Assembly: GCA_964016885.1 (NCBI GenBank)
Contig: OZ024741.1
Location: 37,448,001-37,512,000, forward strand
Length of the DNA: 64,000 nt
Reading direction: 5' to 3'
DNA from: Eledone cirrhosa
Taxonomy: Eukaryota
Positions 4,477 through 52,798 of the stretch are shown piece by piece (positions within the stretch are counted from its first letter, which is position 1; each line of letters starts with the position of its first letter). The notes beneath the pieces are model-generated. The model was given only the letters and a program-made list of their open reading frames with translations. It was not told the origin of the DNA and did not search any database. A program made the position numbers and the translations under genes.

Positions 4477-5360
4477 TCATCATCATCATCATTTAATGTC
4501 CACCTTCCACGTTAGCATGGGCTGGACGGTTTTGTCCCACTTAAGGCGAGATTGGTCGGGAGACCGTGTCTTGCTCATACAGAACTGTTTCTGACAGGTT
4601 TTCTATGGCTGGATGCCCTTCCTAACACCAACCACATTTACAGTGTGGACTGGGAACATTTTTACCATGTCTCCTACACAACCACTTAACAGTGTGGACT
4701 GGAAGGTTTTTATTGTGTGACCGACACGACCACTTTGCAGTGGATGGAGTATGGGTGTCTGGGGTGTATATTGGGTTTAGAGATGCCTACTGACTGTAGG
4801 TTTAGGTTTGTATGCAAGGGAAGGCGGGTCTTCTGTATTACTGCATAGCGCCAAAGATCTCGATCCAGTGACATGACATACATGAAGATCGATATATGTG
4901 ATATGCCGCTGGCAGGAAAGCACACATCCTAATGCCTGTACGCCCAACATACATGTATGTCATGTCACTGGATCGAGATCTTTGGCGCTATGCAGTAATA
5001 CAGAAGACCCGCCTTCCCTTGCATACAAACCTAAACCTACAGTCAGTAGGCATCTCTAAACCCAATATACACCCCAGACACCCATACTCCATCCACTGCA
5101 AAGTGGTCGTGTCGGTCACACAACAAAAACCTTCCAGTCCACACTGTTAAGTGGTTGTGTAGGAGACATGGTAAAAATGTTCCCAGTCCACACTGTAAAT
5201 GTGGTTGGTGTTAGGAAGGGCACCCAGCCGTAGAAAACCTGTCAGACAGTCCTATGCGAGCAAGACAACCACTCTTGCCTCAAGTGGGAAAACTCCCGTC
5301 CAAACGCATACAAGCGTGGAATATGGACGTTAAACGATGATGATGAGGATGATGATGATG
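4477..5360. repeat. inverted repeat of two RTE-B-type 3' ends (arms 4477-4884 and 4952-5360, 67-nt spacer)
   Basis: 4591-4884 is the reverse complement of 4952-5245 with ~3 mismatches; the (GAT)n tails point outward. Confidence 0.95.
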
Positions 5361-8512: not shown

Positions 8513-9313
8513 CATCATCATCACCGTTTTACATCCATTCTTCCACGTCAGCATGGGTTAGACTAGTTGTCCTATTGCGGGGAATGTTAGGTTGGGTGAC
8601 CTTGTCTTGCTAATATGGGAACTGATTTGGCTTGATTTCTACAGCTGGATGCCCTTCCTAACACCAATCTTATTTACAGTACCCATAGTTTGCATTTGGG
8701 GAAGAGGATGGAGTTCCTAGTTACACCTTTCCTACATACTGAGCAAGGCCATTTCCCTGAGGGGTTCTGTTTTCTCATCTAATTACGAGGACCTTGGTCT
8801 TTGTCAGGTTGACTTTGAGACCCTTTCTTTCTAGTCCCTGCTTCCATATTTGGAATTTTTTCTTTAGTTCCTCCATAGATTCAGCTATAAGTGTAAGGTC
8901 TTCCACATACAGGAGTTCCCATGGGCATCTGGTCTTAAACTCTACTGTTATAGACTGCAATACTATAATAAACAGGAGAGGGCTAAGAACTGAGCTCTGG
9001 TGGACACCGACCTGTATGCTAAATTCCTCGCTATAGTCATGGTAAACCCTAACTTTGCTGACTGCTCCCCTATACATGGCTTGTACAGCTTTCACAAGCC
9101 ATTTATCTACTCCTAGTTGTCTAAGAACCCACCAGATTATAGCACGGGGGACTCTGTTGAAGGCTTTTTCCAGATTGACAAATGCCTGGTAGAGTGGCTT
9201 ACTTTTAGCTAGGTACTTTTCCTGTAATTGCCTCACAAGGAAGAGAGCATCAGTGGTGCCTTTTCCTGGCACAAACCCAAACTGCATCTCATCTAGTTTT
9301 ATCCGGTCCCTAA

Positions 9314-9315
<2 letters not shown>
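8513..9315 (-). mobile_element. RTE family C copy with internal deletion
   Basis: RT motifs (MQFGFVPGK..., [10 protein letters not shown]) run to mid-PHD, then jump at ~8680 to a 3' UTR matching 37245-37412. Confidence 0.9.
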
Positions 9316-9707: not shown

Positions 9708-12700
9708 AGTGGCGCTGGTGTTAGGAAGGGCATCCAACCAGTGTATCAATGCCAAAAAGCTTATCAGCACAGCAACAAAACAGCATAGAAAAATATGAAG
9801 ACGTCGCATCTCAGAGTTGCAACACTTAATGTTGGCACTCTCAGAGGTAGATCTGCTGAAATAGCGGAGATGCTGGAGAGAAGGCAGGTGGATGTGTGCT
9901 GCGTGCAAGAGGTGAGATGGAGAGGTGCCTCTGCGAGACTAGTCGTAGGCAAGCGTCTTAGCTATAAGCTATTCTGGGTAGGTAAGGATGATGGGTTAGG
10001 GGGAGTAGGCATTTTCCTGGCTGAGAAATGGATCAATAAGACAATAGAGGTAGTTCGAGTTAGTAATCGAATAATTAAGCTTAGATTAGTTGTAGGTAGG
10101 AGACTACTGACAATCATCTCGGTCTATGCTCCCCAAGCAGGCCTAGGCAAAGATGAGAAAGACTGCTTTTATGAGCAACTTTTGCAAACAACCACAATGA
10201 CAGAGGACGGAGACATCGTTATGCTAGCAGGAGACTTCAATGGTCATGTTGGACAGCTCCAGGATGGTTACACTGGGGTACATGGTGGGCACGGTTACGG
10301 TTCAAGAAATGAAGAAGGAGTGAGACTTCTTGAATTTTGTGATGCAAGTACATTGACTATTTGCAACACAAACTTCCAGAAACCTGCCAATCACCTAATA
10401 ACCTACAAATCTGGTGAGCACATAAGCCAGATTGACTTCCTGCTAGTTAGGCAGCGGGACAGGCAGATAGTGTCTAATACCAAGGCATACCCTGGGGAAG
10501 AATGTACCCCACAGCATAGGTTAGTTGTTAGTGATATCTCAGTAAGCAAGAGATGGAATGAGACATATAGGAAGGTGTGGAGAAGAAAGGTCTGGAAGCT
10601 AAAAGACCTTTCACTAAAATTCAAATTTAGGAAAGCCCTTCAAGATGTATATGACGAAAAAGAAGACGATTTAGAGACGTATGACATAGATAATAACTGG
10701 AATTTCTTACGTGACAACTTGCTGAAGGCTACTGATGAAACCTGTGGCTGGAGCAGCGCTCCAACCAGACAGAGAGTGACCTGGTGGTGGAACAGCAGTG
10801 TAGATAAGGCTATTAGAGACAAAAGACTAGCATGGAAGGCTTGGAATAAGGGTGGGAGTAGGGAAGAATATACAGCCACTAAGAGAGAAGCTAGACGTCA
10901 GGTGTACTTAGCACGCAGGGAGGCAGAGAGTAGGAGGTTTGCCAATGTTCTGCGACGGGAAGATCAGAGGCGTGCGGTGTTCCACATTGCAAGGCAGTGT
11001 GTCAATGCAAATCAGGATGTTGTTGGTGATAAATGTGTCCGGGATGATGCCGGTGTACTTAGTGTCACGAATGACCAGAAAAAGGAGGCCTGGAAATGTC
11101 ATTATGAGAGACTGATGAATGTGGAGAACGAATGGGAGAGAGAGAAATTACCCTTGGTAGATCCGACAGAGGGACCAGCTATTGAGATTGACGAATATAG
11201 GGTCCAAGAGGCGATTAGGGAAATGAAAAATGGTAAGGCGGCCGGACCATCGGGAATAGTTGCTGAGATGCTGAAGGCATCAGGGGACGTAGGCACTAAA
11301 CTGGTTGCACGCATAATCAATCAGGCTATATATGGTGGTGTCATACCCAAAGACTGGTGCAGCAGTATTCTCATAAATTGCTACAAAGGTAAAGGGGATG
11401 CTTTGGAGAGGAGCAATTATAGGGGTATAAAACTGATAGATCAGGTTATGAAAGTGGCAGAAAGGATTTTAACACAACTAATTAGAGAAAGGGTCAAACT
11501 AGATGAGATGCAGTTTGGTTTTGTGCCTGGGAAGAGTACAACAGATGCCCTCTTCTTGGTGAGACAAATGCAAGAGAGGTTCTTAGAGAAGAATAAGCCA
11601 CTATACTTAGCCTTTGTTGACCTAGAGAAGGCCTTTGATAGGGTACCCCAATCTGTCATCTGGTGGTCCCTAAGGAAGCTGGGTGTTGAGGAATGGCTTG
11701 TAAGGACAGTGCAAACTTTGTACAGAGGTACTCTCAGTAAAGTCAGGGTAGGAATGGAGTTTAGTGAGGAATTCCAGATACAAGTAGGAGTACATCAGGG
11801 TTCGGTCCTCAGCCCGCTCTTGTTCATTATAGTCCTCCAAGCCATAACAGAGGAGTTTAAGACTGGCTGTCCATGGGAACTTCTCTATGCTGACGATCTG
11901 GCTCTTATGGCAGAATCAGTAGAGGAGCTAGAGAATAAATTCCGGCTATGGAAACAGCAGTTGGAAGCAAGAGGACTGAGAGTAAATCTAGCTAAGACAA
12001 AAGTGTTGATGAGTAGAAAAGAGGACAAAACCCTGATTCCGTCAGGGAAATGGCCATGTTCGATATGCAGAAAAGGAACTGGCATAAATTCTATAAAATG
12101 CACACAATGTAGGTCCTGGGTACACAAGAGATGTAGCGGGATAGCAGGCAAACTAACAGGTAGGGAGAAATATGTATGCAGTAGATGTACAGGGAAATTA
12201 GACAGTAGAAGTCGCACTGATAGACACATTTTTCAAATGCGAGAGGGCGCTATAGAAGTGGTGGATAGCTTCCGGTACCTAGGAGATCAGATTAGCATGG
12301 GAGGAGGGTGTTCCGAGGCCATAGTATCTAGAATAAGGACGGGTTGGAAGAAGTTTAGGGAGCTGCTTCCTCTGTTGACGAAGAAGGGTTTCTCCCTGCG
12401 TACGAAAGGCCGGTTGTATGATGCCTGTGTGAGGAGCGCGATGCTGCATGGTAGTGAGACATGGGCAGCTACCGCAGACGATATGCGACGGCTGGAGAGA
12501 AATGAGGCAAGCATGCTCCGTTGGATGTGCAGTGTAAATGTGCGTGAACGACCCAGCATAAATGTGTTGAAAGAGAAACTGTGTCTGAGAGGGATAGAAT
12601 GTAGTGTACGGGAGAGGAGACTGAGGTGGTATGGACATGTGATGCGCATGGAGGATGACCGATGGGTGAAGAAGTGCCAGGAAATGCCAGTTGAAGGAAG

Positions 12701-12888
12701 ACGTGGTAGAGGTAGACCACGAAAAACATGGGCGGAGGTGGTGAGAACAGACCTCAGATCATTGAAGCTCACGGTGGAGATGACGAGGGACCGTGACGAG
12801 TGGAGAGATGCTGTGCTGAATAAGACCCGTCCCACCCTTGCAAGCAGGGAAAAGCGGACGTAAAATGATGATGATGATGATGATGATG
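9708..12888 (+). mobile_element. apparently full-length RTE-clade non-LTR retrotransposon, family A
   Basis: Short 5' UTR, single 1022-aa ORF, (GAT)n tail right after the stop, (TA)n on both flanks. Confidence 0.95.
9795..12863 (+). CDS. RTE ORF: APE endonuclease + reverse transcriptase with internal PHD-type zinc finger
   Basis: APE motifs [27 protein letters not shown]; RT motifs [30 protein letters not shown]; [11 protein letters not shown] and RGRPRKTW; no stops. Confidence 0.97.
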
Positions 12889-12893
12889 ATATA

Positions 12894-12930
<37 letters not shown>

Positions 12931-13934: not shown

Positions 13935-16657
13935 TCATCATCATCATCATCGTTTAACGTCCATCTTCCACGCTTGCATGGGTTTGGACGGGAATTTTCC
14001 CATTTGAGGCAAGATTGGTTGTCTTGCTTGTATAGGACTGTCTGGCGGGTTTTCTACAGCTGGATGCCCTTCCTAACACCAACCACGTTTACAGTGTGGA
14101 CTGGGAGGTTTTTACCGCGTTACCTACATGGCGACATTACAGCGTGGACTGTGTTTTTTTTGTTGTGACACCTACATGACCTCATTTATTTCGGACTGGA
14201 TGTTGTGGTACCAACATAACTTCACATTTAAGGGGTGGTGTGGATGGGGCGGGTGTGTACTTTTTTTTTTTTTGTTAAGAGGTGTCTACTGACTGTAGGT
14301 TTCGCTTTGTACTTAGGCAAGGCGGGTCTTCTGTATTACTGTGTAGTGCCAAAGATCTCGGTCCAGTGACATTGTCTTGGAGAGGTGTAAGTGTGTGAAG
14401 TCAGAATTTATCAAGTCATCCTAGGTTTTTCTGTGTCTGCCTACTCCGTGGCTACCGTCTATTTTTATCGCCCTCCACTTTTTTATACAGCTGTCGTCTT
14501 TCATGCGCATCACGTGACCATACCAACGTAGTCTTCTCTCGAGTAAATAACATCTAATTTCTCTTACTCCTAATTTCTCCCTTAGTTCATTTATGCTTTG
14601 CTGTTCACGTATATTACTATTACACATCCAGCGGAGCATGCAAGCTTTGTTCCTCTCCAGTCTGTGAATATCCTCTGCACACAATGCCCAAGTCCCACTG
14701 CCATGTAACATTACTGTTCGTATGCAGGCATCATACAGCCTGCTTTTCATTTTTAGAGAGAACCCTTTAGCAGCCAATAGTGGTATAAGCTCTCTAAACT
14801 TTTTCGATCCCGTTCTGACTCTAGCTACTGTACTTTCAGAGCACCCTCCACCACTGCTGATTTTGTCACCCAGGTAACGGAAGGTGTCCACTATTTCTAT
14901 AGAACCATCTGTGCAATGGAATGAGCTAGTATTCTGTGAGCACTTGCTGCTACTTATTGCATCTGAGCACTGGCCACATATAAAATCTATATTCTTAGTT
15001 AGCTTACCTGTGATCCCACTACATCTTTTATGCACCCATACTTTGCATTTGGGACATAAAATGGAGTTTCTGCCTACTCCTTTCCTACACACTGAGCATG
15101 GCCATTTCCCAGATGGGACCAGTGCCCTATTTTCCTTCCTACAAACTAGAACTTTAGTCTTAGACAGGTTAATTTTAAGGCCTTTTGATTCTAGGCCATG
15201 CTTCCATGTTTGGAATTTCTTCTCTAGTCCAGCCATTGATTCAGCTATGAGCGTTAGATCATCTGCGTATAGGAGTCCCTATAGGCAGCCGGTCTTGAAC
15301 TCCTCTGTTATAGCCTGAAAGGCAATAATAAATAGTAGGGGGCTAAGGACGGAGCCCTGATGAACACCAACTTTTACGCTAAACTCTTCACTATATTCGT
15401 TGTTAATTCTAACCTTGCTGACTGTTTCTTTATACATGGCTTGTATAGCTCTCACAAGCCATTTATCAACACCTAGTTTTCTAAGAGCCCACCAGATAAT
15501 GGAGCGGGGTACTCTGTCAAAGGCTTTCTCCAAGTCAACAAAAGCTAAGTATAGGGGTTTACTTTTAGCTAGGTACTTCTCCTGTAGTTGTCGTACAATG
15601 AAAAGTGCGTCTGTTGTACTTTTACCTGACACAAACCCGAACTGCATTTCATCTAGATCAATTCGCTCTCTGATTAGTTGCGCTATTACTTTTTCTGTGA
15701 CCTTCATGACCTGGTCAATTAATTTAATGCCTCTATAGTTTCCCCTATCTAGGGCATCTCCTTTGCCCTTGTAGCAGTTAATGATGCTGCTACTACACCA
15801 GTCCTTCGGAACGACCCCATTCTGTATGACTATGTTTACTATCCGGGTAGCCATAGTGTGTCCCACCGTTCCAGATGCTTTCAGCATTTCAGCAACTATT
15901 TCCGAAGGCCCAGCCGCCTTGCCTGTCTTCATATCTTTGATCGCCTTACTTATTATACTACCTTCAACTTGTACTTCTGGTCCCTCTATTGGATCGATAT
16001 GTGGGAGACTGTCTTTCTCCCAATTATTCTCCTCATTTAGTAGCCTTTCGGAGTGACACTTCCAAGCTACCTTCTCATCAGTGTCAGTGATGGCAAGTAC
16101 ACCATCATCACTAAGGACACACTTCTCCCCGACAATATCACGGTTTTCCTTGACACATTGCCTAGCAATCCTGAACACTTCACGTTTTTGGTCCTCGTGT
16201 TGTAGAACATGCTTGAACTTTCTTTCCTCTGCTTCCCTTCTTGTGAAGTACACTACGCCATGCTTTCTAAGCCTGCTTTTTGGCCTTGATTGACTCCTCC
16301 ACCTTACTGTTCCACCACCAAGTTACTCTCCTCCTGCCAATAGGTCTGCTCCAGCCACAGATTTCATCTGTCGCCTTCAGCAGGTTAGCTTTCAGGAATT
16401 CCCACTGTTCCTCTATATTGTATGACTCTAATTGCTCTTCCTTACTATCAAAAGCATCAAGTAATATGCTTTTAAATTTATTACTGGCTGTGGGGTCCTT
16501 TAGCTTCCATATTTTTCTCCTGAGGATAGTCCTCTTCTGTTGTCGAGTACATCTCGTCCTGACTATGAGGTTGTTAATTATGAGTCTATGTTGAGAGGTG
16601 CATTCTTCATGGGGGAGGGATTTAGTGTTTACAACAGACACTCTGTCATGTCTTCTG
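13935..16657 (-). mobile_element. 5'-truncated RTE LINE family B copy with stops
   Basis: ORF pieces 16641-16267, 16253-15279 and 15236-14421; ~350-nt 3' UTR; (GAT)n tail. Confidence 0.95.
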
Positions 16658-19472: not shown

Positions 19473-21647
19473 TCAAAATCTTTCATTTGAAAATATTAAT
19501 AGCTAATTATATTGATAATATAGCATGAAAAACTTTTTATAAAAACATATAAAATTTACATAGACTAATATTTAAAATTTTTTTTTTTTTTTTTTGCTCC
19601 TACTCAGCTCTATCTGAACAGTCCTATGATCAAAGCTAACCCTAACCCATATGCCGAGGTAACTGAAATATATGTACCTACCATTCTTACACTAATGTAC
19701 GTTTATTATACATAAACATTGTATATAGGTTCATATATATATGTCTTTATTCTGAATCCCACTGTATTAGTGTTGTATCTAAATTTTGATATAGTAATGA
19801 TAGTTTAATTTACGTGCTGCATTCACCCACAGCCATTCCATTCAATGTAAATTGGTAATATAAGCTAATAACATTCCCAAACCTTCCTTTTTGTCATACA
19901 CTTGAATTATTTTAAATAGAAAAAAGGTATTATTTATTTAATTTATTATTTATTTTATTTTGCATGCTATATAATTCTTTCCCTCTTGGGTGGTCTTTCA
20001 ATTTCGAGATTAGAATTTCCAAGTTTTTACTATAACTCAGTCTATCTGATGAAGTATTCCAACCAGTCATAGAGCTTATCAAATTTCTTTTGCAATTTTT
20101 TTAATTTCCACCTCTATCATCATCATCATCACCTATCTGTTTTCTATACTGGCATGGGTTAGATGTGTTGTCACAGCCTGAGACTTGGCCTGTTGAGGAA
20201 TCATATCTTGCTTATATATTCCATTTTTAGCATGGCTTCCACAGCTGTATGTCCTTCTTAATGCTAACTACTTTACAGAGTTGATGATAGGAAAGCCCTT
20301 CTACCATTAAATACTGCCTTAAAAACCCCATCAAACTCATGCCAGTATGGAAAGTCGGCTGTAAAGTGATGATGCTGATTGTGATGATGCAGCAGGGTGT
20401 TTTAAGACAACCTTGCAACTCCATGATAGTGTCCATTTTGAAGTAACATTTTATGGCTGGGTGCCTTTCCTGCCACCAACACCTTTGGTCGTTTCTTTTG
20501 ACATGCAGGGCTATGGTATACCTCTTCTAAATCAAATAAATGCACTATATGAGTGTGATGAAATGATGATGTGTATGATTTATTATTTTTTGTTTGTAAG
20601 CATTTGTATGTGGAAGAATTCTTGAATCCTGTTTCTCATCAACTTCACCATTCTCACTCCCTATCTGTCCACTGCCAGCCAAAAGCATCCAGTTGTGAAA
20701 TATTGCCTCAAAAAGAATCCCACGATGAGTATAAAGCCTGTCATAAGGCCCTCATAGCTAACCACTGCTTTAGTTGGGAAAATGGCCTTAAAATGCTTCT
20801 TGTTGTATTAGTTTTCTGTCTCTTCTAAATTACACTTTCCCTTCTCTCTTTATTCTATAACTGTTTCATATACTTTCTCTGCCCTTTTATCTTGTTCAAG
20901 TAATTTATTCCTTCATTTTATGGCCCATGTATACCCTATCTGCCACTTCCCATCAATTATTTTGTGCTTGTTACTTATATTTTATGCAGTCATGTTTTAT
21001 TTTGTATGTAAAATGTCCTTCACTTTGCGCTTCCTTTGTTATTTGTGAATAAAAACATTTCCTTTCTACAACCCCTTATTTTTACCTGTTCTTTTATTGT
21101 TATAGCTAATCTCCTCTGAATAGAAATTTTTCTACCTTGAAAATTATTTCCTTTCATTCTCCTATCTTAATAAAACTAGAGAGGAATATCAAAGGTGGTG
21201 TGGCATCTGTTTATATATGCTGTAATGTTAGGCAGATCTGAAAGAGAAAGAAACTTACTTATTGATGAGGCAGTCCCCTATCAGTTCATTGAATGTTCTT
21301 TTTCAGAGGCTGTAGTGTAGCTAGATATTTGAAATTCTTTTATTCTTTTCAGTCTGTGGCTATGTTGGACTGACTTCTATTACTATGATAAGGCAGTCTT
21401 CTATTGCTATCAGCTCATTGAGTACACTTTTTCAGAGGCTGTAGTATAGCTAGATATTTGAAATTCTTTTATTCTTTTACTGGTTTCTGTCATTAGACTG
21501 TGGCTATGCTGGGGCAATACCTTGAGTCAATCATATCAACTCTAATACTTAAGTCTGGTGCTTAATTTTTAGATCTCATTTTTTGTCAAATTATTATGGG
21601 ACACAAACACAAATGTAAATAGAGATACGGCAAAATAGAGAAGCTTT

Positions 21648-26164: not shown

Positions 26165-26270
26165 AATATGGTTTTATAAATATAGTTTCCATTTGTTTAA
26201 TATCGTATATATATATATATATATATATATATGAATGAATGAATGAATGAATGAATGAATGAATACATAT

Positions 26271-26594
26271 GGAGGCACACGGCTTAGTGGTTAGAGCATT
26301 GGCCTTGCAATCGAAAGGTTGTGAGTTCAATTCTCAGACCGGGCGATGTGTTGTTTCCTTGAGCAAGACACTTTATTTCACATTGCTCCAGTTTACTCAG
26401 CTGTAGAAATGAGATGCGGTCCCTATCATTCCACTGCAAAGTGGTCGTGGAGGTGCCACAGCAAAAAAGCACCCAGCACTCACTGTAAATGAGGTTGGTG
26501 TTAGGAAGGGCATCCAGCTGTAGAAATCAAGCCAGAATCAGTTCTCGTCCAACCCTTGCAAGCAAGGAAAAGTGGACGTAAAATGAAATGAATG
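26271..26594 (+). mobile_element. full-length chimeric tRNA-SINE family S1
   Basis: A/B boxes, CORE-like segment, body matching the RTE-C 3' UTR, tail matching the RTE-A 3' end. Confidence 0.88.
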
Positions 26595-28950: not shown

Positions 28951-30339
28951 TTCTGGAATTTGCAATTGACAATGTGGGCTTTTCGTTTCATCTTTTCAAG
29001 GTTGATGAATAAACTATTAATCAAGTAATTGGGTTGATTCTTCTTTCTTGATTTTTTTTCTGTCTAGAAGTAATTGGTACTGTTCAGACCTGGAGAGGAT
29101 TAGGCTCTGCTAGGTCTGAAATGCTGAAGACATTATCATGATTCTACCCTTGTGACTTTATCAGGAGTTCTGGGCCTTATGGATATTTACATGTAACATT
29201 TACAGAGAGGATTCTTAAGTCATGTAAAGGACAAGACAATTTCTCTAGTACTGCTGTCATGATAAAAAAAAAGTACTGGTGCCACTCAGTACACTTAGTG
29301 AAGTGGTTGGCAATAGGAATGACATCCCGTCATAGAAACCATGCCAAAAAGGACTGTTTCTGGGTGAGATGTGGACTCCTGACTTATCTTGAAGCACAGT
29401 AGCTCCAATTAAGTTCTGGGTTGGTCTGTAACAACTTGTCCAACCCATTTCAGCTTGGAAAAATGAATGTAAAATGATGATGGATGACATTGTAACATAT
29501 ATTATGAATTGAGGTTCTGTTGGTCCAGTAGATAAGTGACATGCTAGGTTTTCATGTATTTTCATGAGAAAAACTGACTTACACACAAGTTTATATGCTT
29601 CATTTTATTACATTTCATTTTTTATTTTTATTTTCAATTGCCCAATCAAAGTTCAATAGATTATAGTTTGAATTAAAAAGTTTTAAAAAACATTTCTTAG
29701 AAAATAATTAGATATTTCATAACTAATTTGCCTGTTGAGTCTTGAATCTTGTAATAATAATGCTAAGTGGTTAAAGTGATTATCATCCTGTAGGTCATTT
29801 CAGTCTTTTTTTTTTTTCAATTATATTTTTTGCAGACCATCAGGAAATCTGATGACTATCCACATAAGGATTAAGTAGGCTTCAGTTGACTGAGGATCCA
29901 ACTTTTCTCACAGACAACAAGTAAGTTCATTTTATTATTAAGTTGGATTTTTATATAAGATCTCTTAGCATGTGAGAGCCATGAGTGTATTGTCAATAGT
30001 TGAAGTGTCCTTGTTATATAGAAAAGTTGATCCTTCTCAGCTATTGACAAACACATTGTTGCTGTAGGACAACTCTGGCAAAAGGCATTAGTAGTTGTTT
30101 TTTTTTTTAAGACATTTTTAAATATTTCTTTTTATTTTATAAAATTGTTTCTATTGCTTTATATATCTTAATTTTTATTAATTGATTTGTACTTTGTCGT
30201 GAAGAGCACTTATAATATTTCTTAGAATATATACAACTTTTTAATTTGTTACTTTTAAGTATTTTTTTGTTGTAAATATTCAAAATTTTTATCTTATTTA
30301 TGAAATTGGAAAATAAATCTGCTTTTGTTTATTATTGTT

Positions 30340-30390: not shown

Positions 30391-32062
30391 GGTGATAGTT
30401 GTCATAGTATAACTATAAGTTCTCAGTAACCTAAATCTGGGAACCAGTTTCAATTTATAGAACTATTAATGCTTTTGGAAAAGGCATGAACATCATGTAT
30501 TCCATAATTCCAGTCTTATGAATTTGATATATTATGTCTGTGTATGAAATTAATATTTTGATGGCAGCATGGTTCTATGGTAAGTTCTCTGGGAATAAAT
30601 AATGTCTATGACTTAATTGGAACTATTTTTTTTTACTGACACTCTTGGAAAAAGTATAGATATAACAGTTACCATTTCCCTCCCCATATATATGTGCCTG
30701 AAATCTGTCTTGGACAGAGTGCCATCTTATAAGTATGTATGTTTCAAATCATTATGTCTGAATTATATTTGAAAATAACAGCAGATTGAACCCAAGATCA
30801 GAACTACTCACACTTTGAACCCTTACAATTAAAGACTTTTTTAGTTACTTATAAAAACTGATTTTTGAAATAGAGATTTTCAAATCAGGTGTTTTTGGAT
30901 AAACGCTTTTTACACAATGGAAAGTATCTGAAAACACAATTGAATTGTATATTTTGAGTGACATACCATGGATTGTCTTTGTAAAATGATGTTAATTATT
31001 GTTATAGGTTTTATTGTGGTGTAACTGTTTCAGAGGAAAGCATTGTTGTCTTTGAGTAAATAGATTTTTTGAAAATATTCAGAGTATTTTGAATAAGGAT
31101 ATTTATGCAACAACAGAAAGGGAATTGTACAACCAAAATAATATACATTGCAAATTTGGCAGGCGTGACTTGTATTACATCTGTTTTTAAAATAACTTTG
31201 AAATGACAACTAAAAATTTAAAGTGGTTTATCTAGGTTGCCATTGCATAATGTTTTCACAGATATAAATAAACTTGATGATCCTTGCTCAGTTCATTTAA
31301 TTGTTATCAAAGGACTGGCAATGTGGAACTTAGATAAATAAGATTTGAGGTCTTTAGCTTAAATATATATTGTGTGTGTGTGTGTGTGTGTGTGTGTAGC
31401 TGGTACTTTTACATGAGGGAGGACAAGGAAGATATGGGATGAAGTGGTTAAGACTGATTCCAAGAGGGTGAACATCTTTAATGTACATTATTCTCATTAA
31501 ATATGTTATAGAAAGAAATGATTGTTTCTTATTTATAAATTGTAGATATATCCCAATTATCTTCTGAAAAGTCTCTTTCTTCACTTTCTCTTTGTCTCTC
31601 TATCTCTCTTTTGCTGATCCTTTCACTTCTGTTTAGGCTCTGATGTGTCATCACCTTTTAAATCTTGGAAAGATGCTATGGAAGAAATACTAGATTATTA
31701 TAACACCATATATTTTCTAAGTAGTGCTTGTGATATGATAAAATATACCTACTACACCCTGTAATGTGATTGGTGATCAAACAGAAACATTATAAGGTAG
31801 AGAGGACTCTTCATTTTTGCTGAATATATGACAACTTCTCTAGTGCTGGTGCCACGATGAAATGCACCCTGACTCTGAAAAATGGTAATTTTAGTGCCAT
31901 GATAAAATGCATCCAGTTTGCTCTGTAAATGGTTATCGTTAAGAAAAGCATCTAGTCATAGAAACCATGCCAAAATATGGAACGTATGAGCAAAATATGG
32001 TTATCTGATCTGTTTTGTCTCTGACTGTGATGACCCCTAAAACCATTGAAAACGCACATAAA

Positions 32063-33960: not shown

Positions 33961-35322
33961 TGGTGACCTAGTAGGATTTGAGAAATAGGTGAACAATTGC
34001 CATGGATTAGTGATGTATTATCAAAGAATACCCCAAAAGGGGAAATTTTAAAACATTTCAGTTTCTTAAGAACAACAGAATAGACATTGCACAACATGGA
34101 AAACTGATCTCTTTAACTGATGCCAGAAAAAGATAAAAGCAACCATGAAATTGATGATTTGTTGTTGTTGTTGGTGGTGGTGGTAGTTGTGATGATGTTG
34201 ATATCATCAGCACGGCATTTACCATCAAGCCAGGCTTCCAAGCAGGCGGTTTTACATATTCTTTTTCTCATGAATTCCGTTCATGAGAAGAGAAAGAAAT
34301 AAGGTTTTTAAATTTTTTTAATTTTTACTTATGTATATTTAAAAAAAATAAAATGCAGACAAAGCGTATGCAATGAGTCATTTAAAACAAACAGTTAAAC
34401 GTCTAGGAGGCCAGTGTTTGCAGAGCATATAACAGATGTTCTTTAGAAGGAAACTGTTGCAAATGAAGTGACCTTGACTGCTTTGCTTTCACCTACAACC
34501 TAATGATATATATAATATATTTTGCTTATCAAGCAGCATGTCTTATCAATGTTTCTTTTTTATGGTTTGTTGTGTTTTGGGAAAACTGATGTTCCTAGCA
34601 AAGTTTTCAAGTAGGCCATCCTCATCACCTGGAATAATCAAGTGTTGTCTCAGTCATCTTGTGTCTATTAGAGTGTGTGTGTGTATGCAAACACATATGT
34701 GCAAGCACACACACATGCACGCATATATGTAGTTTAATCAGGTGTTATATCTCAGAAACAGTAAGTGCTAGTTTAGTCCTTTCCTTACCATATTTCTAAT
34801 GAAAAACACTGCCTATGATTTTTAAATGATTTTGAAAATGATCAAGAATTTGGTGTGATTTAGTAAAATAACTAACTTCCTTATTACTAAGCTATTATTT
34901 GGAACATAACAGTTCTCACATAAAATCTTGATGGTAGACTTTTAGATAAATACTTTCAGGTCCCAAGTAATAGGAGGGGGTAATAAGTGCAGTGGAGGTT
35001 GGACATTTGCTTAAATTCTTATAAGTGGGGCGTGGGTGTGTGTGGAATAAAAGGTGGGAGGGTGGGGGTGGGGGTGGATCAGTAATTGTATAGTGTATAT
35101 TTGTAAATATGGGATTCCTTGTAATGTTCTTTTTTATATACTATCAAGACCTGATAGTATATAAATCCTTTAACTCTGTCATTACAATATTTCTAATGAA
35201 AGACACTGCTTATGTTTTTTAAATAATTTTGAAAATAATAAAAATTTTTCATTATTAAACAGATAACTTAAAGGTTTTTACATAAATATAAATATTTAAA
35301 AATAAACTGTTTTGTATTGTAG

Positions 35323-37412
35323 GTGAGCTTGCCCTCACAAGTGCTGAGAAGAAAGATGCATGGAAGAGTCATTATGATAGATTACTAAATGAGGAGAATG
35401 CATGGGAAGAAGAGACCCTACCCCACGTAGACCCTATAGAGGGACCAGCAGTACAAGTCAGCGGCAGCGTAGTAAGTAAGGCAATCAGAGATATGAAGAT
35501 AGGGAAGGCAACCGGTCCATCGGGTATAGCTGCCGAGATGCTGAAGGCATCTGGGTCTGTAGGTCACACTATAACCACACGTATCGTTAACCAGGTAATA
35601 CTAGAGGGGGCCATACCAAAAGATTGGTGCAGTAGCATCATTGTCAACTGCTACAAAGGTAAAGGCGATGCACTAGATAGAGGAAACTATAGAGGTATAA
35701 AGTTGATGGACCAGGTCATGAAAGTAACAGAAAGAGTTATAGCACAGCTGATTAGGGACCGGGTGAATATAGACGAGATGCAATTTGGGTTTGTTCCAGG
35801 GAAAGGCACCACTGATGCGCTCTTCCTTGTGAGGCAATTACAGGAAAAGTACCTAGCTAAAAGTAAGCCACTCTACTTGGCATTTGTCGACCTTGAGAAA
35901 GCCTTTGACAGAGTTCCACGTGCAGTAATCTGGTGGGCTCTTAGAAAACTAGGAGTAGATGAATGGCTTGTGAAAGCGGTACAAGCCATGTATAGGGGAG
36001 CAGTCAGCAAAGTTAGGATTGGCAATGAGTATAGCGAGGAATTTAGCGTACAGGTTGGGGTCCACCAGGGCTCTGTTCTTAGCCCTCTCCTGTTCATCAT
36101 AGTCCTGCAGGCAATAACGGAGGAGTTTAAGACCGGATGCCCATGGGAACTCCTGTATGCTGATGACCTCGCACTCATAGCTGAATCTATGGTAGAACTA
36201 GAGAATAAATTCCAAACCTGGAAGCAGGGACTAGAGAGAAAGGGCCTCAAAGTCAACATGACAAAGACTAAGGTCCTTATAAGTAGACGAGAAAACAGAA
36301 CCCAGATCCCCTCAGGGAAATGGCCTTGCTCAGTATGTAGGAAAGGTGTAGGTAGGAACTCCATTCTTTGCCCCAAATGCAAACAATGGGTACACAAGAG
36401 ATGTAGCGGGATCTCAGGAAGCTTAATTAAGAATGTAGGATTCACATGCAGCAGCTGTGCTGAAACAGCAAGCAAACAGCCACAGGAAACAAGTACCACC
36501 AATCTCTGGGAGGGCCCTGTAGAAACAGTAGACAGCTTCTGCTACCTAGGTGACCGAATTAGCAACGGAGGTGGGTGCTCAGAAAGTACAATAACTAGGG
36601 TAAGAACGGGATGGAAGAAGTTTAGGGAACTACTACCACTGCTAGCTGCAAAAGGCTTCTCCCTCAGAATGAAAGGCAGACTGTATGATGCGTGTATCCG
36701 AACAGCGATGTTGCATGGTAGTGAGACCTGGGCGCTGAAGGTGGAAGACTTACGTAGATTAGAGAGAAACGAAGCCTGCATGCTCCGATGGATGTGTAAC
36801 AGTAATATACGTGAACGACAAAGCATAAATGAATTGAGAGAGAGACTGAGCATAAGAGGAATCAAATGCTGCGTGCAGGAGAGGCGGTTACGCTGGTATG
36901 GACATGTGATGCGTATGAAGGATGACAGCTGCATAAAAAGGTGCAGAGCACTAGAAGTTGATGGAAACCGCGGAGTGGGGAGACCCAAGATGACTTGGGA
37001 TGAGGTGATAAAAGCCGACCTTACCCAACTACACCTCTCAAAGTCAATGACACACGACCGTGACTTCTGGCGTCACGCAGTAATACAGGGTACCCGACCT
37101 CCCATGGGTACATGCTGAAGCATATAAACAATATGCCCCCCCCCCCCACCGCAAGGTGGCCGTGGAGGTGCCACGGCAAAAAAGCACCCAGCCCACACTG
37201 TAAAGTGGACGTGTAGGCGCCACGAAAAAGCACCCAGCACTCACTGTAAATGAGGTTGGTGTTAGGAAGGGCATCCAGCTGTAGAAATCAAGCCAGATCA
37301 GTTCCTGTATGAGCAAGGCATGGTCAGCCGACCAGACACTGCCCACAACAGGACAACCCGTCTAACCCATGCTAGCGTGGAAGAACGGACGTAAAACGGT
37401 GATGATGATGAT
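35323..37412 (+). mobile_element. 5'-truncated RTE LINE family C copy
   Basis: Open frame through RT, ~290-nt 3' UTR, (GAT)n tail. Confidence 0.95.
35493..37118 (+). CDS. RTE reverse transcriptase with PHD-type finger (endonuclease lost to truncation)
   Basis: [46 protein letters not shown]; no stops in 541 aa. Confidence 0.9.
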   Translation: MKIGKATGPSGIAAEMLKASGSVGHTITTRIVNQVILEGAIPKDWCSSIIVNCYKGKGDALDRGNYRGIKLMDQVMKVTERVIAQLIRDRVNIDEMQFGFVPGKGTTDALFLVRQLQEKYLAKSKPLYLAFVDLEKAFDRVPRAVIWWALRKLGVDEWLVKAVQAMYRGAVSKVRIGNEYSEEFSVQVGVHQGSVLSPLLFIIVLQAITEEFKTGCPWELLYADDLALIAESMVELENKFQTWKQGLERKGLKVNMTKTKVLISRRENRTQIPSGKWPCSVCRKGVGRNSILCPKCKQWVHKRCSGISGSLIKNVGFTCSSCAETASKQPQETSTTNLWEGPVETVDSFCYLGDRISNGGGCSESTITRVRTGWKKFRELLPLLAAKGFSLRMKGRLYDACIRTAMLHGSETWALKVEDLRRLERNEACMLRWMCNSNIRERQSINELRERLSIRGIKCCVQERRLRWYGHVMRMKDDSCIKRCRALEVDGNRGVGRPKMTWDEVIKADLTQLHLSKSMTHDRDFWRHAVIQGTRPPMGTC

Positions 37413-38699: not shown

Positions 38700-39100
38700 A
38701 TCATTATCATCATCATCACTATTTCATGTCTATTTAACATGCTTGCATGGATTAAACAAGTAGCCATGTATTGAGGCTAGATTGATCAGGTAACCATGTC
38801 TTGCTTGTATGCTCCATTTTTGGCTTGGTTTCTATAGCTGGCTGTTCTTCCCAATACCAATGACTTTGCAAAACATACTGGGAGCATTTTATCATAATTT
38901 CAGCACTACCATTTTACAGAGTGAACTGGATGGTTTTTGTTGTGGCACCAGCACTACCACCTTACAGGGTGGTGTGGGTACTTTTTCATTGCACCAGCAC
39001 TACTGCCTTACAGTGTGGACAGGGTGCTTTTTATCATGACACTAACACTATGATTTACAGAGGAGGCTGAATAATGCATTTTTATCATGGCACCAGGACT
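38700..39100 (-). mobile_element. degenerate RTE 3'UTR/SINE with ~45-bp module repeated about 5 times
   Basis: Repeats of GCACCAGCACTAC..TTACAG.GTG..TGG.TGCTTTT next to an RTE-type tail. Confidence 0.6.
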
Positions 39101-39690: not shown

Positions 39691-42481
39691 ATAGTCAACA
39701 TTGGGTTCTCTTCTGAGGCAATGTTTTATGGCCAGATGTCCTTCCTGGTGCCAAATCTTTCAGTTTCCTCTTATGCCATGCAGAGCTATGGTTGTACATA
39801 TTCTAAACCAGAAAGAAAATGGCCTTAAATCTCTTCTTGTTGTTATGCTTAAACTAGGAACTATTAACAGTATTGATCTATAAGTACAGTATGTTAATCA
39901 ATTGTGCATATAATACAACATTTAACTTGCACACTCAGAAATGTCTGTATATATTTCACAGCATGTGGGACACCATGAATGTAATTAATAAAGCTTGTAT
40001 GTTAAGCTGATTTCTTTATTATGAAATAAAATCAAAGTAACTAAAATGTCTCTCTATAAATATAGGTAGTTGTCAGATCTTTAACTCAAAGATAAGCTTC
40101 ACATTGAAATCTAAAGCCTATTATGCATTTCAAATTCAATATAATGATCATGATTACTGTCTTGATGACTATTTTTGTGTTAATCTAGCATAGAGCACAG
40201 CTGACGTGAAAATGACTGTTTTATTTCAAATATATCAACCCTTGCTCGCATTGAAAGCAGACATTAAAACGATGATGATGATGATGATGATTAACCCTTT
40301 TACTATCATAAATAATGACAGTACCTATGATTTTCAAATAACTTAAAAAGTAATCAAGATTTTGAAGAGATATAGTAATGTATAATAACCAACTTTTTGA
40401 TTATTAAGTTGTTTAAAACATTTGCTGTTTGTTTTTGTTATGCATTAGTAAAGATATATAACAACAACAAACAAAAAGTTCCCCTCTCCTGCTGGTCTAC
40501 AGTCATCATCATCCTCATCATTTAACACTCATCAGGGTGTACTGTGAATTTCCTTATGACACCAGTGCTGGGGAGGTTGTCATGTCTTACGTCATACACA
40601 GATACAATGTACCTATTCTCAACCAATTTACACACAGCATTGCCCAGATTAATTTAAACACAAAAACGACCATAGCTGTGTGACTTTTAAAAAGTCATCA
40701 TAATGGGATAAAACAAATTGTCTCCTTTTAAGCTGAATGGAATCGATAATTTTATTTTTCCCAGTTAAATATATTTCTCTTGTCAGTAGAAAAACTGTGA
40801 TGTGTTGCTGTTATTGCTGCTACTGTTACTACTGCTACTACTGCCTCCAGCCAAGTGATATATAGTCAATAGGTAACTGTTGGAAAATATGCATGCTTGG
40901 CTGATTATTCTGTGCCAAGTTATTTCACCAAGTCTCCATGCTAGCAGAAGCATTGAAAGATCTTAAATCATGAGCAAGCTGAAGTAATTTTCCCAATCAT
41001 TGAAGTGTGTGCACAAAGAAGGGAGATAGAAAAAGAAAAAACATAAATGTAAAAAGAAAAAATAATCAAATAAAATTTCTGATAAAGATTGTGGTTAGAG
41101 TGGGATGGTATAAGAGGATGTATTTCTGAAAAATTCAAACAGAGTAGACTAAATATAACAAATTGATAGCTAAAGCATGAGTTCAACATATATATTTAGG
41201 TGATAGCTCACAAGGACTTTGAGGTTTGATCAATATTGTGCAGAGCCCCATTACTTTATATTTAGCATCTTGTATGTATATTTTTATTGTACATACTGCA
41301 TGTTCTACATCAGTGGTCATGAGTCTGGGTTCATACAAACCCAAAAGGTTCATTGAAATATTTTTGGGCTTGCAAATGAAAAAAAGCAGTTTCTGCAAGG
41401 TTCATCAGTTAAAGTTTGATAGTTTTTCATGCCATTCTAAATTTTCTACTTTAATATGTTACTTTTTGCAGAGCCCACACCACTTAGAACCATTGATCCA
41501 GGATTTACATCTTTCTGCTATCTTCCAGCTGATATTATAATCAGTAGAGTCCTCTTTTAGCTTCCATACATGGCTGGAGAACTTAGCTGTCTTCCTTTTC
41601 TCCTGTTTCTGAAATGTTGCATGGTTCTTTAGTGTTTTTTAAACTGTCGTTTTGTAAGACTGATGTACTGCTTGAGATTGGTGGTCCAGTCTAGGTTTAT
41701 CAATGTCACTGTTGCCTCATAGACAATGGTGTTGGTCTTATATGCCCCTTTAGAGGGCATGCATTTCTGATCCTACTCCCAAAATAGGGGGGGGGGGGGT
41801 GAATAAGCAGGAGTGTTGGAATAAGTGGGGGGGGGGGGGGTGTCATTGGAATAAGCAGAGGGTTAGAAAATTGGTAATTTTTCTAGATTGTCTCCGTTGA
41901 TTTTTTTAAGAACCAGAATTAGTTGTTTAGTTTACATATTGAAACCCCAACCCATCCTATTTATTTTATAACATATGGGATTTCTCGTAATGTACTTTAT
42001 TTGTCATGTATAATGTTTTTTAATGTCTAAAGAAAATTAATTGTTGCAGGAATGCTACCACTTAAAATAAAATTTTGCCAGAGATGGATTAGCAAAATTG
42101 AATAAGTGGAGTGTGGGGGTGGAATATGAGTGGGGATGGTTGGAAAAAATCTGAAAAATTAATAAGTAGAGGGAACAATTATTTGAGACCTGAGTATATG
42201 ATCATTCGATTAAGTTGGGTAGTGGTGGCTTACTGGCTATGATGGATTTAAGTTGAGCATTGAGCTAAAACTGACTTTAAGGTTGTGTCTGTTGAATAGT
42301 TTCCTGTAATGGTGGCTAGTTGGGAGTGTTTGTCTTCTAAAGCTAGGTATGTTCTGATGATGTTGGTCTTGACATTCAGTGAAAAGAGAGGAGTAAACCA
42401 GATTCTTCTTTGGGTTCTGTGTTTTTTCTTCCCCTCTCCCTCTCTCCTCTCTTCCTCTCTCTTTATATATATATATAGTAA

Positions 42482-43400: not shown

Positions 43401-43502
43401 TTTGCCCTTTATTTCTACTACATTTTACCGGCTTTCTGAAATACTTATCAATCATTTATTATATATATATATTTATATATATATATATTTATATATATAT
43501 AA

Positions 43503-43889
43503 TCATCATCATCATCATTTTACGTCCGCTTTTCCCTGCTTACAAGGGTGGGACGGGAACTGATTCTGGCTTGATTTCTACAGCTGGATGCCCTTCCTAA
43601 CACCAACCTCATTTACAGTGAGTGCTGGGTGCTTTTTTTTCCGTGGCACCTACACGTCCACTTTACAGTGTGGGCTGGGTGCTTTTTTGCCGTGGCACCG
43701 CCACGACCACTTTGTAGTGGAATGATAGGGACCCCAGTCCTATCATCTCATTTCTACAGCTGAGTTATCTGGAGCAATGTGAAATAAAGTGTCTTGCTCA
43801 AGGAAACAACACATCACCCGGTCTGAGAATTGAACTTACAACCTTTCGGTTGCAAGGCCAATGTTCTAACCACGAAGCCATGTGCCTCC
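43503..43889 (-). mobile_element. full-length chimeric tRNA-SINE family S1
   Basis: Reverse complement matches 26271-26594 with one extra module; RTE-A tail and (GAT)n. Confidence 0.9.
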
Positions 43890-46147
43890 ATTATATATGT
43901 ATGTATATATAAACCCAGGCTAGCATGGAAAAATGGATGTTAACCGATGATGATGATTATGCAGCCTGAGACAAAATACACTCATTACCATAATCCTTCT
44001 TAAACTATGTGGTTGAAAAATAATGTAATATTAACTTCAACTTTCAAAGTCTTCTATCTAAAAGCCACCCAACTGTAGAGACATCTGCTTGAACCATTCA
44101 TGCAATTGTCTGTATTTTTGGAATCATCCAACTATCCAATCATTCAAATATGCTACAAATTTGGCTCAGCATGAATTATTATTTCCTCTTGTATGAATTG
44201 GAGATGTAACATTAGTGAATAAACATAGAAAACCTTGTAAATAGCAAAATATATTGTCAGTGCCAGCTCGATTCCGTGCACTGGTAATTTCTAAATTGAG
44301 TTCTTTTGGTTGTTATGATGCCTATAATGGACATGCTGGACAACCCTACTCTGCTATGGAATGTAATAAGCCATTGATATATGTTGTGCAAAGCATCTAG
44401 GTGGTGAGCTTAGTTTGCAATATGACTTAATTACCCCAAAAAAGACATTTGCTTGAATTTGATTAAGTTGGTTGACTCATTACAAGTGAGACACCCATAT
44501 GTTTGACAGGAAGTATTCCCTCCACAGCTCAAAAGAGATTGAGATAAGTGAGATTGACACTAATGGTTACATTGAGCTGCCAGATTCTTGTAGCTTAGAG
44601 GTTTGCCTGAAAAGTACCAGCCCAACTCTGCCAGGCAGTCAATAAGTAAATAATAAATGTATAGAAATATTAAGTTTTGATTTTTATACAATATAATATA
44701 AACGATATCAATAACAATTCAAGTAATCTGTGTTTACATTTATACTGCTTAACAACAAGTACTATTTGTTTATGTTTCATAACTTTAACACTTCAACAAA
44801 TAAAGATAGTTAAAATAGGTACCAAATAAGAAAAAAAACTTGTACTGGGGTTGATATTGACAACAACTAATACTGCTTTAAGGCCATTTTCTGTAAGAAT
44901 TAACCATGCAGGCCTGGTGACAAGCTTCTCTATTTTATCCTATCATCATTTTTATCTAAGATTACTGAACGTTGCAAGTCAAATTGCTGAGCCATGGGAG
45001 ATATTTTTTACACAGGACATAAACAAAATCACCACCTGATTGACAAATGCAAAGTGAAGACACAGACAAATATAATATGCACACATATACATACACTCAC
45101 TTTTACATACATATATGCATACATCCATACACATACATACACCCACACACACATACATACTCCTTAGTTCTGGTGCCACAATAAAGCACATCATGTATAC
45201 CCTGTAAGATGGTCAGTGATAGGAAGAGCATCTAGCAATTGTGTCAAAGATGCAACAACCTCTCTAATGTTGGTGACATAATAAATTGCACTCAGTACAC
45301 TCTGTAAAGTGGTTGGTGATAGGAAGGACATCCAGTCATAGAAAATTACCAAACAAAGAGTAAAAATGACTCTTAAATTGTGCCAAAGATATTATGACCT
45401 CCTAATACTGGTGCCATAATTAAATGCATGGTGTGTTTTGTAGAGCAGTCATGAGTAAACTGCAAGTTGCATGCAGCTTGTTTGGTTTCTGAATGGCACA
45501 CCTAATTTCAAAATTGCCTTGAATTTTTTAGTAGTATTGTCCGCCTAATGATGGGCCACATCCTATGTGGCCTGCTGTTTGATAAATGTTGCTTATGCCT
45601 GCTGTAGTGTGTGAGATCAGTAGCTTTGATTGAGTACTGAATTTGTCTATGATGACTTGTCAAAGACTTGCTAGCAGGGAAAGCAGATGTTAAATGATGA
45701 TCTCTCTTTATCAAAAAAGAGACGGATAGATAATATAACGATTATCTGGCTCTATGTTCACTCAATGAGAGAATTGAAGCTTAAATTGCAAGACTATAGA
45801 ACGCTTTCACACTGCCAGTGTCATAGGAATCCACATATCTAATATTTTGCACAGAATAATCTAATCAGGTTGAAAAACAGAGAGACAGAATAAGTGCTAT
45901 ACCTACATAACCACTAAGATTTTATATGGTACGATTTCATGCCAGCAAAAACCATCAACATTCACTATTGATTAACATCGGTAAATGGTGAAGCCAAGAA
46001 CCATCAATCATCAGAAGGCATCTTGTAATTCCTGAAAAAATATTAAATCCCAAAGAATCAGTGGCCAGCCATTGCTGTTGTCATATGTATGTATATGACA
46101 ATATGTTGTCATATGTATATAAATAAACATAGAGTAAGTTGGAATGC

Positions 46148-52535: not shown

Positions 52536-52552
52536 ATATTTATATATATATA

Positions 52553-52798
52553 GTCACGACAAAAAAACACACAGTCCACGCTGTAATGTGGCCATGTAGG
52601 CAACACGGTAAAAACCTCCCAGTCCCAGACTGTAAATGTGGTTGGTGTTAGGAAGGGCATCCAGCTGTAGAAAACCCACCAGACAGTCCTACGCGAGCAA
52701 GACAACCACTCTTGCCTCAAGTGGGAAAACTCCCGTCCAAACCCATGCAAGCGTGGAAGATGGACGTTAAGCGATGATGATGATGATGATGATGATGA
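52553..52798 (+). mobile_element. RTE-B 3' UTR-only copy
   Basis: Matches the B 3' UTR and (GAT)n tail; head-to-head with the previous copy. Confidence 0.9.

Follow-up and report, generated by a model that had tools for sequence, protein, structure and literature searches.

Why long interspersed nuclear elements (LINEs) of the RTE type, almost alone, yield short interspersed nuclear elements (SINEs) that keep a piece of a 5' untranslated region (UTR) is an open question (Kojima 2018, PMC5786205). A stretch of 64,000 nucleotides from Eledone cirrhosa (assembly GCA_964016885.1, contig OZ024741.1, positions 37,448,001 to 37,512,000 of the forward strand; in the following called the window) poses this question in a form of its own. 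One conserved motif lies in the 5' UTR of a LINE (family A), behind the open reading frame (ORF) of related LINEs (families B, C and an older E) and within SINEs (S1), and it has to be asked what keeps such an element in place on both sides of an ORF. We lean slightly towards the answer that an RTE 5'-UTR pseudoknot acts as a position-independent mobilisation signal, likely bound by the protein of the element itself.

The 20-nt core of the motif lies at 9716–9735 (+), which is the only 5' copy in the window. It starts 7 nt past the start of LINE A (~9709, directly out of a (TA)n run) and ends 59 nt ahead of the ATG of A at 9795, which opens an intact ORF of 1022 amino acids. A search with the 20-mer gave 16 matches at up to three mismatches, 10 of them exact, and none in 100 shuffled sequences. 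Seven further decayed copies were recovered by a hidden Markov model (HMM) together with a covariance model, resulting in a total of 23 copies at E<0.01; the HMM found nothing below E=1 in the reversed window. Sorted by context, the 23 copies comprise the 5' copy of A, seven with ORF sequence upstream (B at 14062, 50951, 4611 and 5206; C type at 37257 and 8647; E at 49743), the three S1 SINEs, three truncated UTRs of B/C type and nine decayed copies. With 23 copies in 64 kb the repeat is very abundant. The sequence-only reading from which the analysis started had placed the motif in the 5' UTR of A, in the 3' UTRs of B and C and in SINEs, which the sorted copies confirm; all 11 other positions it named are genuine copies, and the covariance model it had suggested building detects all 23. 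Its limits for the motif (9709..9748) proved too short, as the conserved unit spans ~42 nt and extends to TGCC at 9750–9753. The expected distance of ~120–150 nt before the tail holds for the B-, C- and E-type copies (125–140 nt, counted from the first motif position to where the terminal box ends) and fails for S1 at 26496, 43586 and 63532 (88–89 nt) and for the element at 49933 (86 nt). At the 3' end of A itself the motif is absent in all three copies of A that have a 3' end.

All long ORFs of the window belong to one lineage with a single ORF, an apurinic/apyrimidinic (AP) endonuclease, a reverse transcriptase (RT) and a PHD finger. The latter sits directly behind the RT (12063–12190, amino acids 757–800 of ORF A; also in B, C and the related outside locus L001, see below) and recurs in many of the 120 homologues listed; the C-terminal half of A is matched by 2585 proteins among 8000 candidates. 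LINE A consists of an 86-nt 5' UTR as present (9709..9794, +), possibly 5'-truncated, the single ORF (9795..12863, +) and a 3' terminal hairpin with a (GAT)n tail (12826..12890, +). Its stop codon lies inside the terminal box, leaving A without a 3' UTR, and from 9736 to 9800 no further match exists anywhere in the window. As in RTE elements, the single ORF starts with the AP endonuclease, continues with the RT and is accompanied by no ORF1, and the 3' end of A, of L001 element 1 and of the L019 element is very short, consisting of a terminal hairpin followed by a microsatellite tail; in B, C and E the 3' UTR is acquired and longer. We class the lineage as RTE-type on the basis of this anatomy, to which the (GAT)n tail and the bipartite derivatives belong as well as the single ORF and the terminal hairpin; the RT tree, with all of its 24 rows kept and rooted on a distant fish match, holds no named RTE reference. 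From RTE-2_OV of Octopus vulgaris (1109 amino acids, ~600-nt 5' UTR, C2H2 finger; PMC9115989) A differs by description, and the sequence of RTE-2_OV was not found in the 4 of 8 supplement files of that paper that were searched.

One degenerate pattern was run over GTDB genome contigs, which gave 19 loci (L001–L019), with L008 duplicating L007 and L018 duplicating L017. Two loci, L005 and L011, were rejected as chance matches in GC-rich bacterial sequence, where only the core agrees and the flanks show no homology. The other 17 of the 19 are animal-type retrotransposon or SINE sequence in bacterial or archaeal contigs of metagenome-assembled genomes, i.e. eukaryotic contamination or chimeric contigs. 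Locus L001 holds one complete related ORF (46% identity to A over 1011 amino acids) and the start of a second, and the motif lies upstream of both, one of these copies having been located by the HMM and missed by the pattern. In all three 5' copies the first ATG past the structure opens the long ORF (at +41, +20 and +11 nt). L001 element 1 and the L019 element run straight into the tail without a 3' UTR, as A does, and at least 180 nt more sequence lies upstream of each motif copy in L001. The position upstream of the L001 ORFs marks the 5' UTR as the native place, and from the sequences compared we regard an origin of the motif at the end of the 5' UTR as very probable, as had been proposed.

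The same loci bear on the concern that the copy at 9709 is an unrelated SINE fragment which happens to abut the ORF of A. This copy of A is the sole one here with a 5' end. However, no tail stands between the motif and the ATG, the flanks are unlike those of all 3' copies and yet form an 8-bp stem, and the position is matched in the two distant relatives in L001, which makes a stray fragment extremely unlikely.

In the other outside loci the motif lies 60–130 nt ahead of an RTE-type tail, behind a tRNA-like head (L015, L017) or without a head (L006, L012). Headless bipartite elements start GC-rich and show a hairpin with a TAAAAGG loop (L006 1765–1850; L012 ~4190–4290, −; L010 970–1000, −). 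This hairpin is reminiscent of RTE 5' ends that are ribozyme-like; neither in L006 nor in L010 did Rfam give a match. By sequence, bipartite derivatives keep the motif repeatedly, matching the pattern of Kojima 2018 (PMC5786205), where bipartite SINEs derived from RTE elements and non-autonomous RTEs join a piece of the RTE 5' UTR to the RTE 3' end (Bov-A/Bov-tA, MAR1, AfroSINE, WALLSI2, SINE2-2_ACar, SINE2_Gav and CoeSINE4/5); bipartite RTE derivatives are known also from PMC7245038. S1 and the L015/L017 elements resemble WALLSI2 and SINE2-2_ACar in their order of tRNA part, CORE-like part, RTE 5' piece and RTE 3' end. Unlike in these published derivatives, the bipartite module here also forms the 3' UTR of autonomous-type LINEs, namely B, C and E.

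How the motif came to stand behind an ORF can be read from B and C, which form a clade with 98% ultrafast bootstrap, sister to A. Two long 5'-truncated copies of LINE B (13945..16656, −, with the motif at 14062–14081 in the 3' UTR, at 129 nt from the terminal-box end; 50830..52541, −, with the motif at 50951–50970 in the 3' UTR) are collinear and 95% identical from ORF to tail, so that the module is part of the element and no neighbouring insertion. In LINE C, likewise 5'-truncated (35322..37410, +), the stop at 37118 is followed by a remnant of an old tail, a C-run, two units of a ~49-nt array (37156–37254), the motif (37257–37276) and the tail. A C-like copy (8520..9315, −) passes from an ORF fragment into the 3' UTR ~18 nt before the motif at 8647–8666. 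The 3' order common to B and C is thus a decayed old terminal sequence, a C-rich spacer, two to three ~49-nt array units, the motif, 60–70 nt and a fresh terminal hairpin, and a degenerate old tail could be read by eye behind the ORFs of B, C and E. The older LINE 3' end E (49336..49860, +; 49% amino acid identity to A over 41 amino acids) has a like 3' UTR with a decayed motif at 49743–49762. The array unit stands directly upstream of the motif in one to five repeats, and its HMM gives 38 matches in the window (37156–37254, 38876–39095 and others); an origin of the array from a 5' UTR was considered and is unsupported, the array HMM having no match in the outside loci. Taken together, these arrangements of sequence make it likely that the ancestor of B and C gained the motif by capturing a bipartite element as its new 3' end.

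The donor of this capture would have been an element older than S1. The S1 SINEs (26269..26590, +, with a tRNA-like head, a CORE-like body, C-derived array and motif at 26496–26515, and an A-type tail; 43500..43891, −, motif 43586–43605; 63460..63705, −, without the head, motif 63532–63551) agree with C in 91 of 96 positions upstream of the motif and in 44 of 44 over the motif, and their tail is 93% identical to the 3' end of A, which is also its source. By its composition S1 is a late mosaic and the recipient of the motif of C; as donor of the B/C module it is ruled out by the C-identical upstream part in combination with the A-type tail. As in other bipartite SINEs the middle of S1 comes from an RTE 5' UTR (the motif is found in that of A and of both L001 elements), here obtained via the 3' UTR of C, and its 3' end is common with a partner RTE, namely A. 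The head shows A- and B-box-like stretches by eye; ARAGORN called no tRNA. The earlier proposal of a bipartite capture agrees with the acquired 3' module, the old-tail remnant and the monophyly of B and C, and S1 has to be read as receiving from C and not as donor. The two independent junctions seen in S1 and in a short old bipartite element (49917..50030, +, motif 49933–49952, tail joined ~10 nt after the downstream GCC) lie 10–12 nt past the downstream strand described below. A grouping of 5' ends shortly ahead of the motif (at −7, −11 and −18) was considered and dropped, since further ends occur near −75, −90 and farther away and the counts are too low.

The comparison of B and C furthermore indicates that the motif is maintained in its new position. 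At fourfold-degenerate sites the two families are 36–37% identical, whereas 34 contiguous nucleotides around the motif are identical, as are 41 of 44 from −3 to +41; identity amounts to 73% in the array, to ~70% of aligned positions downstream and to 41 of 47 in the tail. Such a peak at the motif against near-saturated synonymous sites points to selection in the new position. The conserved element is real and under selection. A neutral account would have a young module spread among B, C and S1 by recent template switching and sitting functionless beside the tail. The high identity of the whole array region relative to synonymous sites and the presence of mosaics (S1; the 4611/5206 pair) fit such hitchhiking, but the peak at the motif against ~70% on both sides, the like arrangement of the older E family and of decayed copies, and the independent retention of motif and tail in unrelated animals (L006, L007, L010, L016, L017) make it decidedly improbable.

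With respect to the position at the 5' end of A, a self-cleaving ribozyme that generates this end has to be considered, and cleavage was among the functions proposed by the sequence-only reading. A starts 3 nt before the lower stem, one B fragment starts ~11 nt before the motif, and some RTE 5' ends carry ribozymes resembling that of hepatitis delta virus (HDV; Ruminski 2011). These share with the element the location in the RTE 5' UTR and a stem of 3 bp whose 6-nt loop finds its partner downstream of an enclosing stem. They differ from it in that the element lacks P2 and P4 as well as the catalytic signature of L3 or J4/2, and in that the ribozymes are terminal whereas the element is internal and is tolerated between ORF and tail. 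At gathering scores Rfam found only a 28S fragment in the window; an Rfam scan by E-value gave six matches at the 5' end of A, all at E>=2 and none to a ribozyme or other family, and in 5 of the 19 loci two chance matches and no family. A loose HDV descriptor had no match in eight regions, and the set of P1, P2, P3, L3 and J4/2 was not found. B, C and E hold ORF and tail joined across the motif, and S1 and L017 keep their heads. The element does not define a 5' end, being internal in L001, B, C, E, S1 and L017, and only A starts at its base. Self-cleavage is therefore very unlikely.

The fold of the element was compared in an alignment of 27 rows, i.e. 16 of the 23 window copies and 11 copies from the outside loci with near-duplicates left out, and in a table of 11 young lineages without decayed copies and near-duplicates. 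The structure predicted for A (9712..9753, +) has a lower stem of 8 bp (9712–9719 with 9737–9744), an internal loop (9720–9723 against 9736), an upper GGA/UCC stem (9724–9726 with 9733–9735) and a loop (9727–9732) whose GGCA can pair with TGCC at 9750–9753. Its nested part equals the minimum free energy (MFE) structure of 9709–9748 and agrees with the RNAalifold consensus, in which the AGGGCA loop is closed by GGA/UCC and TGGY is paired with RCYR. This TGGY/RCYR register comprises 8 bp and the MFE in A and includes the stem that the sequence-only reading had drawn there; a GTY/RRC register, which differs by the position of a 2-nt bulge, is complete in 11 of 11 lineages and reaches 7 bp in element 1 of L001. 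Next to the bulged A, 13 of the 27 rows have a U-A pair and 12 a C-G pair. The downstream GCY, which no search imposed, stands 14–17 nt past the hairpin in 23 of 27 rows, against a background of 0.13 for a window of seven positions, and it is pairable with the loop GGC in all 11 young lineages, with duplex energies of −5.4 to −5.9 kcal/mol in 10 of them.

Hairpin and pseudoknot together pair in 87% of cells with 17 double-sided cells, and neither value was reached in any of 500 column shuffles, a control that ignores relatedness. For the earlier fold, TGTT paired with GGCA within an outer stem, 83% of cells pair, which 117 of 500 shuffles equal. The T-A pair of its inner stem is lost in 13 of 27 rows, and in register the outer stem is complete in 6 and the inner in 4 of the 11 young lineages. 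Its outer stem had been described as changing yet staying paired; the stems of A and of the 3' copies lie in different registers and are not one stem. On the aligned sequences the GGA/UCC hairpin with loop–downstream pairing fits better than the earlier fold, and the element more likely than not folds as a small pseudoknot; computed thermodynamics alone does not choose between the folds. A DNA or plain-sequence site for a transcription factor or RNA-binding protein, with incidental pairings, would agree with a core that is invariant and not covarying and with folding z-scores that are not significant, and regulator binding has been suggested for conserved RTE 5' segments (Kojima 2018). It does not account for the fixed spacing and the complementarity of the downstream GCY or for the U-A/C-G pair, nor for the covarying stems in published RTE segments, and we consider such a site improbable.

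These published segments resemble the motif in several respects. The segment of BovB and RTE-1_OAf has an AGGA..GGC..TCCA core in common with it, likewise precedes the ATG and agrees in predicted topology. By eye, BovB-type segments show a stem, a small internal loop, GG(A)/(T)CC, a GGC loop, the closing stem, a linker, GCC, an A-rich run and the ATG, and the GGA/TCC stem is common to RTE-1_OAf and BovB_Bh. Their outer stem changes on both sides (CTGGAG/CTCCAG, CGGAAG/CTTCCG, TCAGAGG/CCTCTGA) and the downstream GCC stays constant, which favours the loop as the partner of GCC. Among 23 BovB-type sequences, many of them close relatives, 18 have four to five contiguous loop–downstream pairs, four need a bulge and one is broken; GGCAA/TTGCC changes to GGCCA/TGGCC. 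The motif and the BovB-type segment agree in a short distance before the ORF start and in retention in bipartite derivatives, and by eye homology is likely. The CoeSINE4-type segment is alike in topology, its loop and downstream strand being complementary in 7 of 7 sequences across five different loops by eye, and the WALLSI/MonoRep-type segment looks alike by eye. The Ceph-domain of squid and cuttlefish SINEs, whose 3' half comes from an RTE 5' UTR, is likewise an internal RTE 5'-UTR segment serving as SINE body behind a CORE-like part (Kojima 2018); the motif is absent from the four Ceph-SINE consensus sequences compared, and no similarity to the Ceph-domain was found. The R2 protein binds a 5' RNA pseudoknot (PMC6765202), and R2 may serve as a model for the present element, with a pseudoknot near the 5' end of a single-ORF non-LTR (long terminal repeat) element that the ORF protein binds and that internally deleted derivatives (R2 SIDEs) retain. 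It differs in belonging to the RLE (restriction-like endonuclease) clade versus the APE (AP endonuclease) clade and in that its pseudoknot is tied to an HDV-like ribozyme, and no sequence or Rfam relation is shown.

Several observations weigh against the proposed pseudoknot, its capture and its kinship with other segments. No copy folds better than its shuffles (z −1.5 to +0.5 in six of six stretches), the nested MFE of the B and C copies is the earlier fold and that of L001 element 2 the same or close to it, and nested ensembles favour different folds in different copies. In B and C the pseudoknot helix is reduced to 3 bp, and within the family it shows no double-sided change. Most of the U-A/C-G covariation comes down to a single division between the window and other animals, to which one old copy adds. 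A decayed copy at 39704..39769 (−) is the sole window copy with the C-G pair beside the GGA/UCC stem. In the loci that the scan pattern found, GGA, TCC and RRC were prescribed by that pattern, and the shuffles take no account of relatedness. An alternative nested structure, in which the downstream strand pairs with the 5' TGGY, is likewise reached by none of 500 shuffles; it is complete in just 2 of 11 lineages. The likeness to the BovB-type segment consists of a core of ~15 nt seen by eye, the position and the topology, without an E-value. As to the capture, B and C are seen only as 5'-truncated copies and A as one full-length copy, and a later exchange of 3' UTRs could account for part of the identity between B and C, whose array is conserved as well.

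Three functions had been proposed for the motif: RNP (ribonucleoprotein) binding, translation and cleavage. A translation or ribosome-docking signal would put an uncapped RTE RNA on the ribosome before the start codon, and copies in SINEs and 3' UTRs would stay close to ribosomes and catch the nascent ORF protein, in the manner of Alu through SRP9/14. The ORF start as first ATG past the structure in all three 5' copies fits this account, as do an ATG that BovB-type sequences show by eye ~11 nt past the downstream strand and the role like that of an internal ribosome entry site proposed for the HDV-like 5' UTRs of R2 and L1Tc (PMC6765202). However, the spacing to the ATG varies between 11 and 41 nt, 22 of the 23 window copies have no ORF start downstream, and initiation as such cannot account for selection in a 3' UTR or in a polymerase III-transcribed SINE, which leaves translation a rather unlikely explanation. 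A signal for the ORF protein or its RNP fits all positions and is thus the most likely of the three; judged from the distribution of the copies only, we give protein or RNP binding about an even chance.

The preferred reading of a mobilisation signal concerns an element of ~42 nt that these RTE-type, PHD-bearing LINEs carry at the end of the 5' UTR and that adjoins the tail in their derivatives. The predicted fold comprises a lower stem whose 2-nt bulge slides, one Y-R pair, an A bulge and the GGA/UCC stem, and GGC(A) of the AGGGCA loop would pair with a (U)GCY strand 14–17 nt downstream across an A-rich linker. The element would act as a second, position-independent handle by which the own protein picks its RNA. 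After the ancestor of B and C had captured a bipartite element behind its ORF as new 3' end, the module would lie beside the tail, and every B or C copy longer than ~150 nt would bear both signals as a ready-made bipartite SINE. S1 would then have arisen from a tRNA-CORE head, the module of C and the tail of A. RTE-1 and Vingi-1 templates used in trans carry both UTRs (PMC13708176).

The remaining copies show how widely the module is scattered over the window, which is AT-rich with many (TA)n runs and LINE fragments. Two short B-type copies, 4485..4874 (−; last codons and 3' UTR, motif 4611–4630) and its inverted partner 4962..5345 (+; motif 5206–5225 with one mismatch), stand head to head with ~90 nt between them; their inner arms are almost identical and their tails fall into separate subfamilies, a combination that points to gene conversion over the inverted repeat or to a recombinant. 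Truncated 3' UTRs are found at 52553..52790 (+; 5'-truncated B, motif 52643–52662), 59501..59660 (+; 5'-truncated B beginning ~11 nt ahead of the motif at 59513–59532) and 58425..58646 (−; an older B/C-type UTR, motif 58552–58571). Decayed copies comprise two in tandem at 45198..45363 (+; an array unit before each), one at 38810..39095 (−; five array units upstream and a B/C-type segment downstream) and those found by HMM and covariance model at 31918..31983 (+), 29292..29357 (+) and 20217..20494 (−; two copies, 20217–20282 and 20429–20494). The A, B and S1 copies lie mostly within (TA)n runs (e.g. 9400–9708 and 12890–13045), where target-site duplications are unreadable; their placement suggests targeting of TA microsatellites. 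An older motif-free SINE head with CORE-like body (8230–8363, +; 75–78% to S1) lies directly behind an A tail and could be the kind of neighbour able to supply a LINE with a new 3' end. Apart from these elements, the window contains an isolated fragment of the 28S rRNA 3' end (28354–28756, +; Rfam LSU_rRNA_eukarya, E 5e-29), a weak DDE_3 transposase match between LINEs A and B (13267–13722, +; E 0.0016), probably a Tc1/mariner remnant, and a dispersed repeat family of ~180 nt unrelated to the motif (several at 56640–59180; 1790–1968; 39393–39617).

Within the literature searched, with subscription papers and patents outside the search, no account was found of the motif, of an RTE 5'-UTR pseudoknot or of a bipartite module as the 3' UTR of an RTE LINE, and the exact motif string was absent. 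It was not found either in the readable portion of the Kojima 2018 supplement, and the accessible portions propose no structure for the segments; the accessible parts of PMC9115989, PMC13282606 and PMC4758252 contain no such motif, pseudoknot or 3' module, those of PMC13295347 and PMC6007223 mention only a 3' hairpin or nothing, and no RTE structure was among 15 PDB matches. Bipartite RTE derivatives are thus known, and the motif, its fold and its placement in a 3' UTR are without account in the searched literature.

The route proposed here is the reverse of the usual one, in that a LINE takes its 3' end from a bipartite derivative. Conservation of the element behind the ORF as well as before it serves as a natural experiment. 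A candidate structure of 42 nt with mutable predicted pairs is offered as well, and the finding bears on RTE-1 gene-insertion tools, whose templates carry both UTRs. As a broader and more tentative proposal, which we hold somewhat less probable than not, a pseudoknot common to the whole RTE clade and placed where the 5' UTR ends may serve these elements as a second template signal, which would be the reason why their derivatives are bipartite. It would unite the seemingly unrelated RTE-derived SINE bodies of the BovB, CoeSINE4, WALLSI/MonoRep and present types by shape and not by sequence, and the LINE lineage of the window would have moved the pseudoknot beside its tail, turning short copies into self-sufficient SINE-like templates. 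Such a signal would explain why these parasites retain both ends of their parent.

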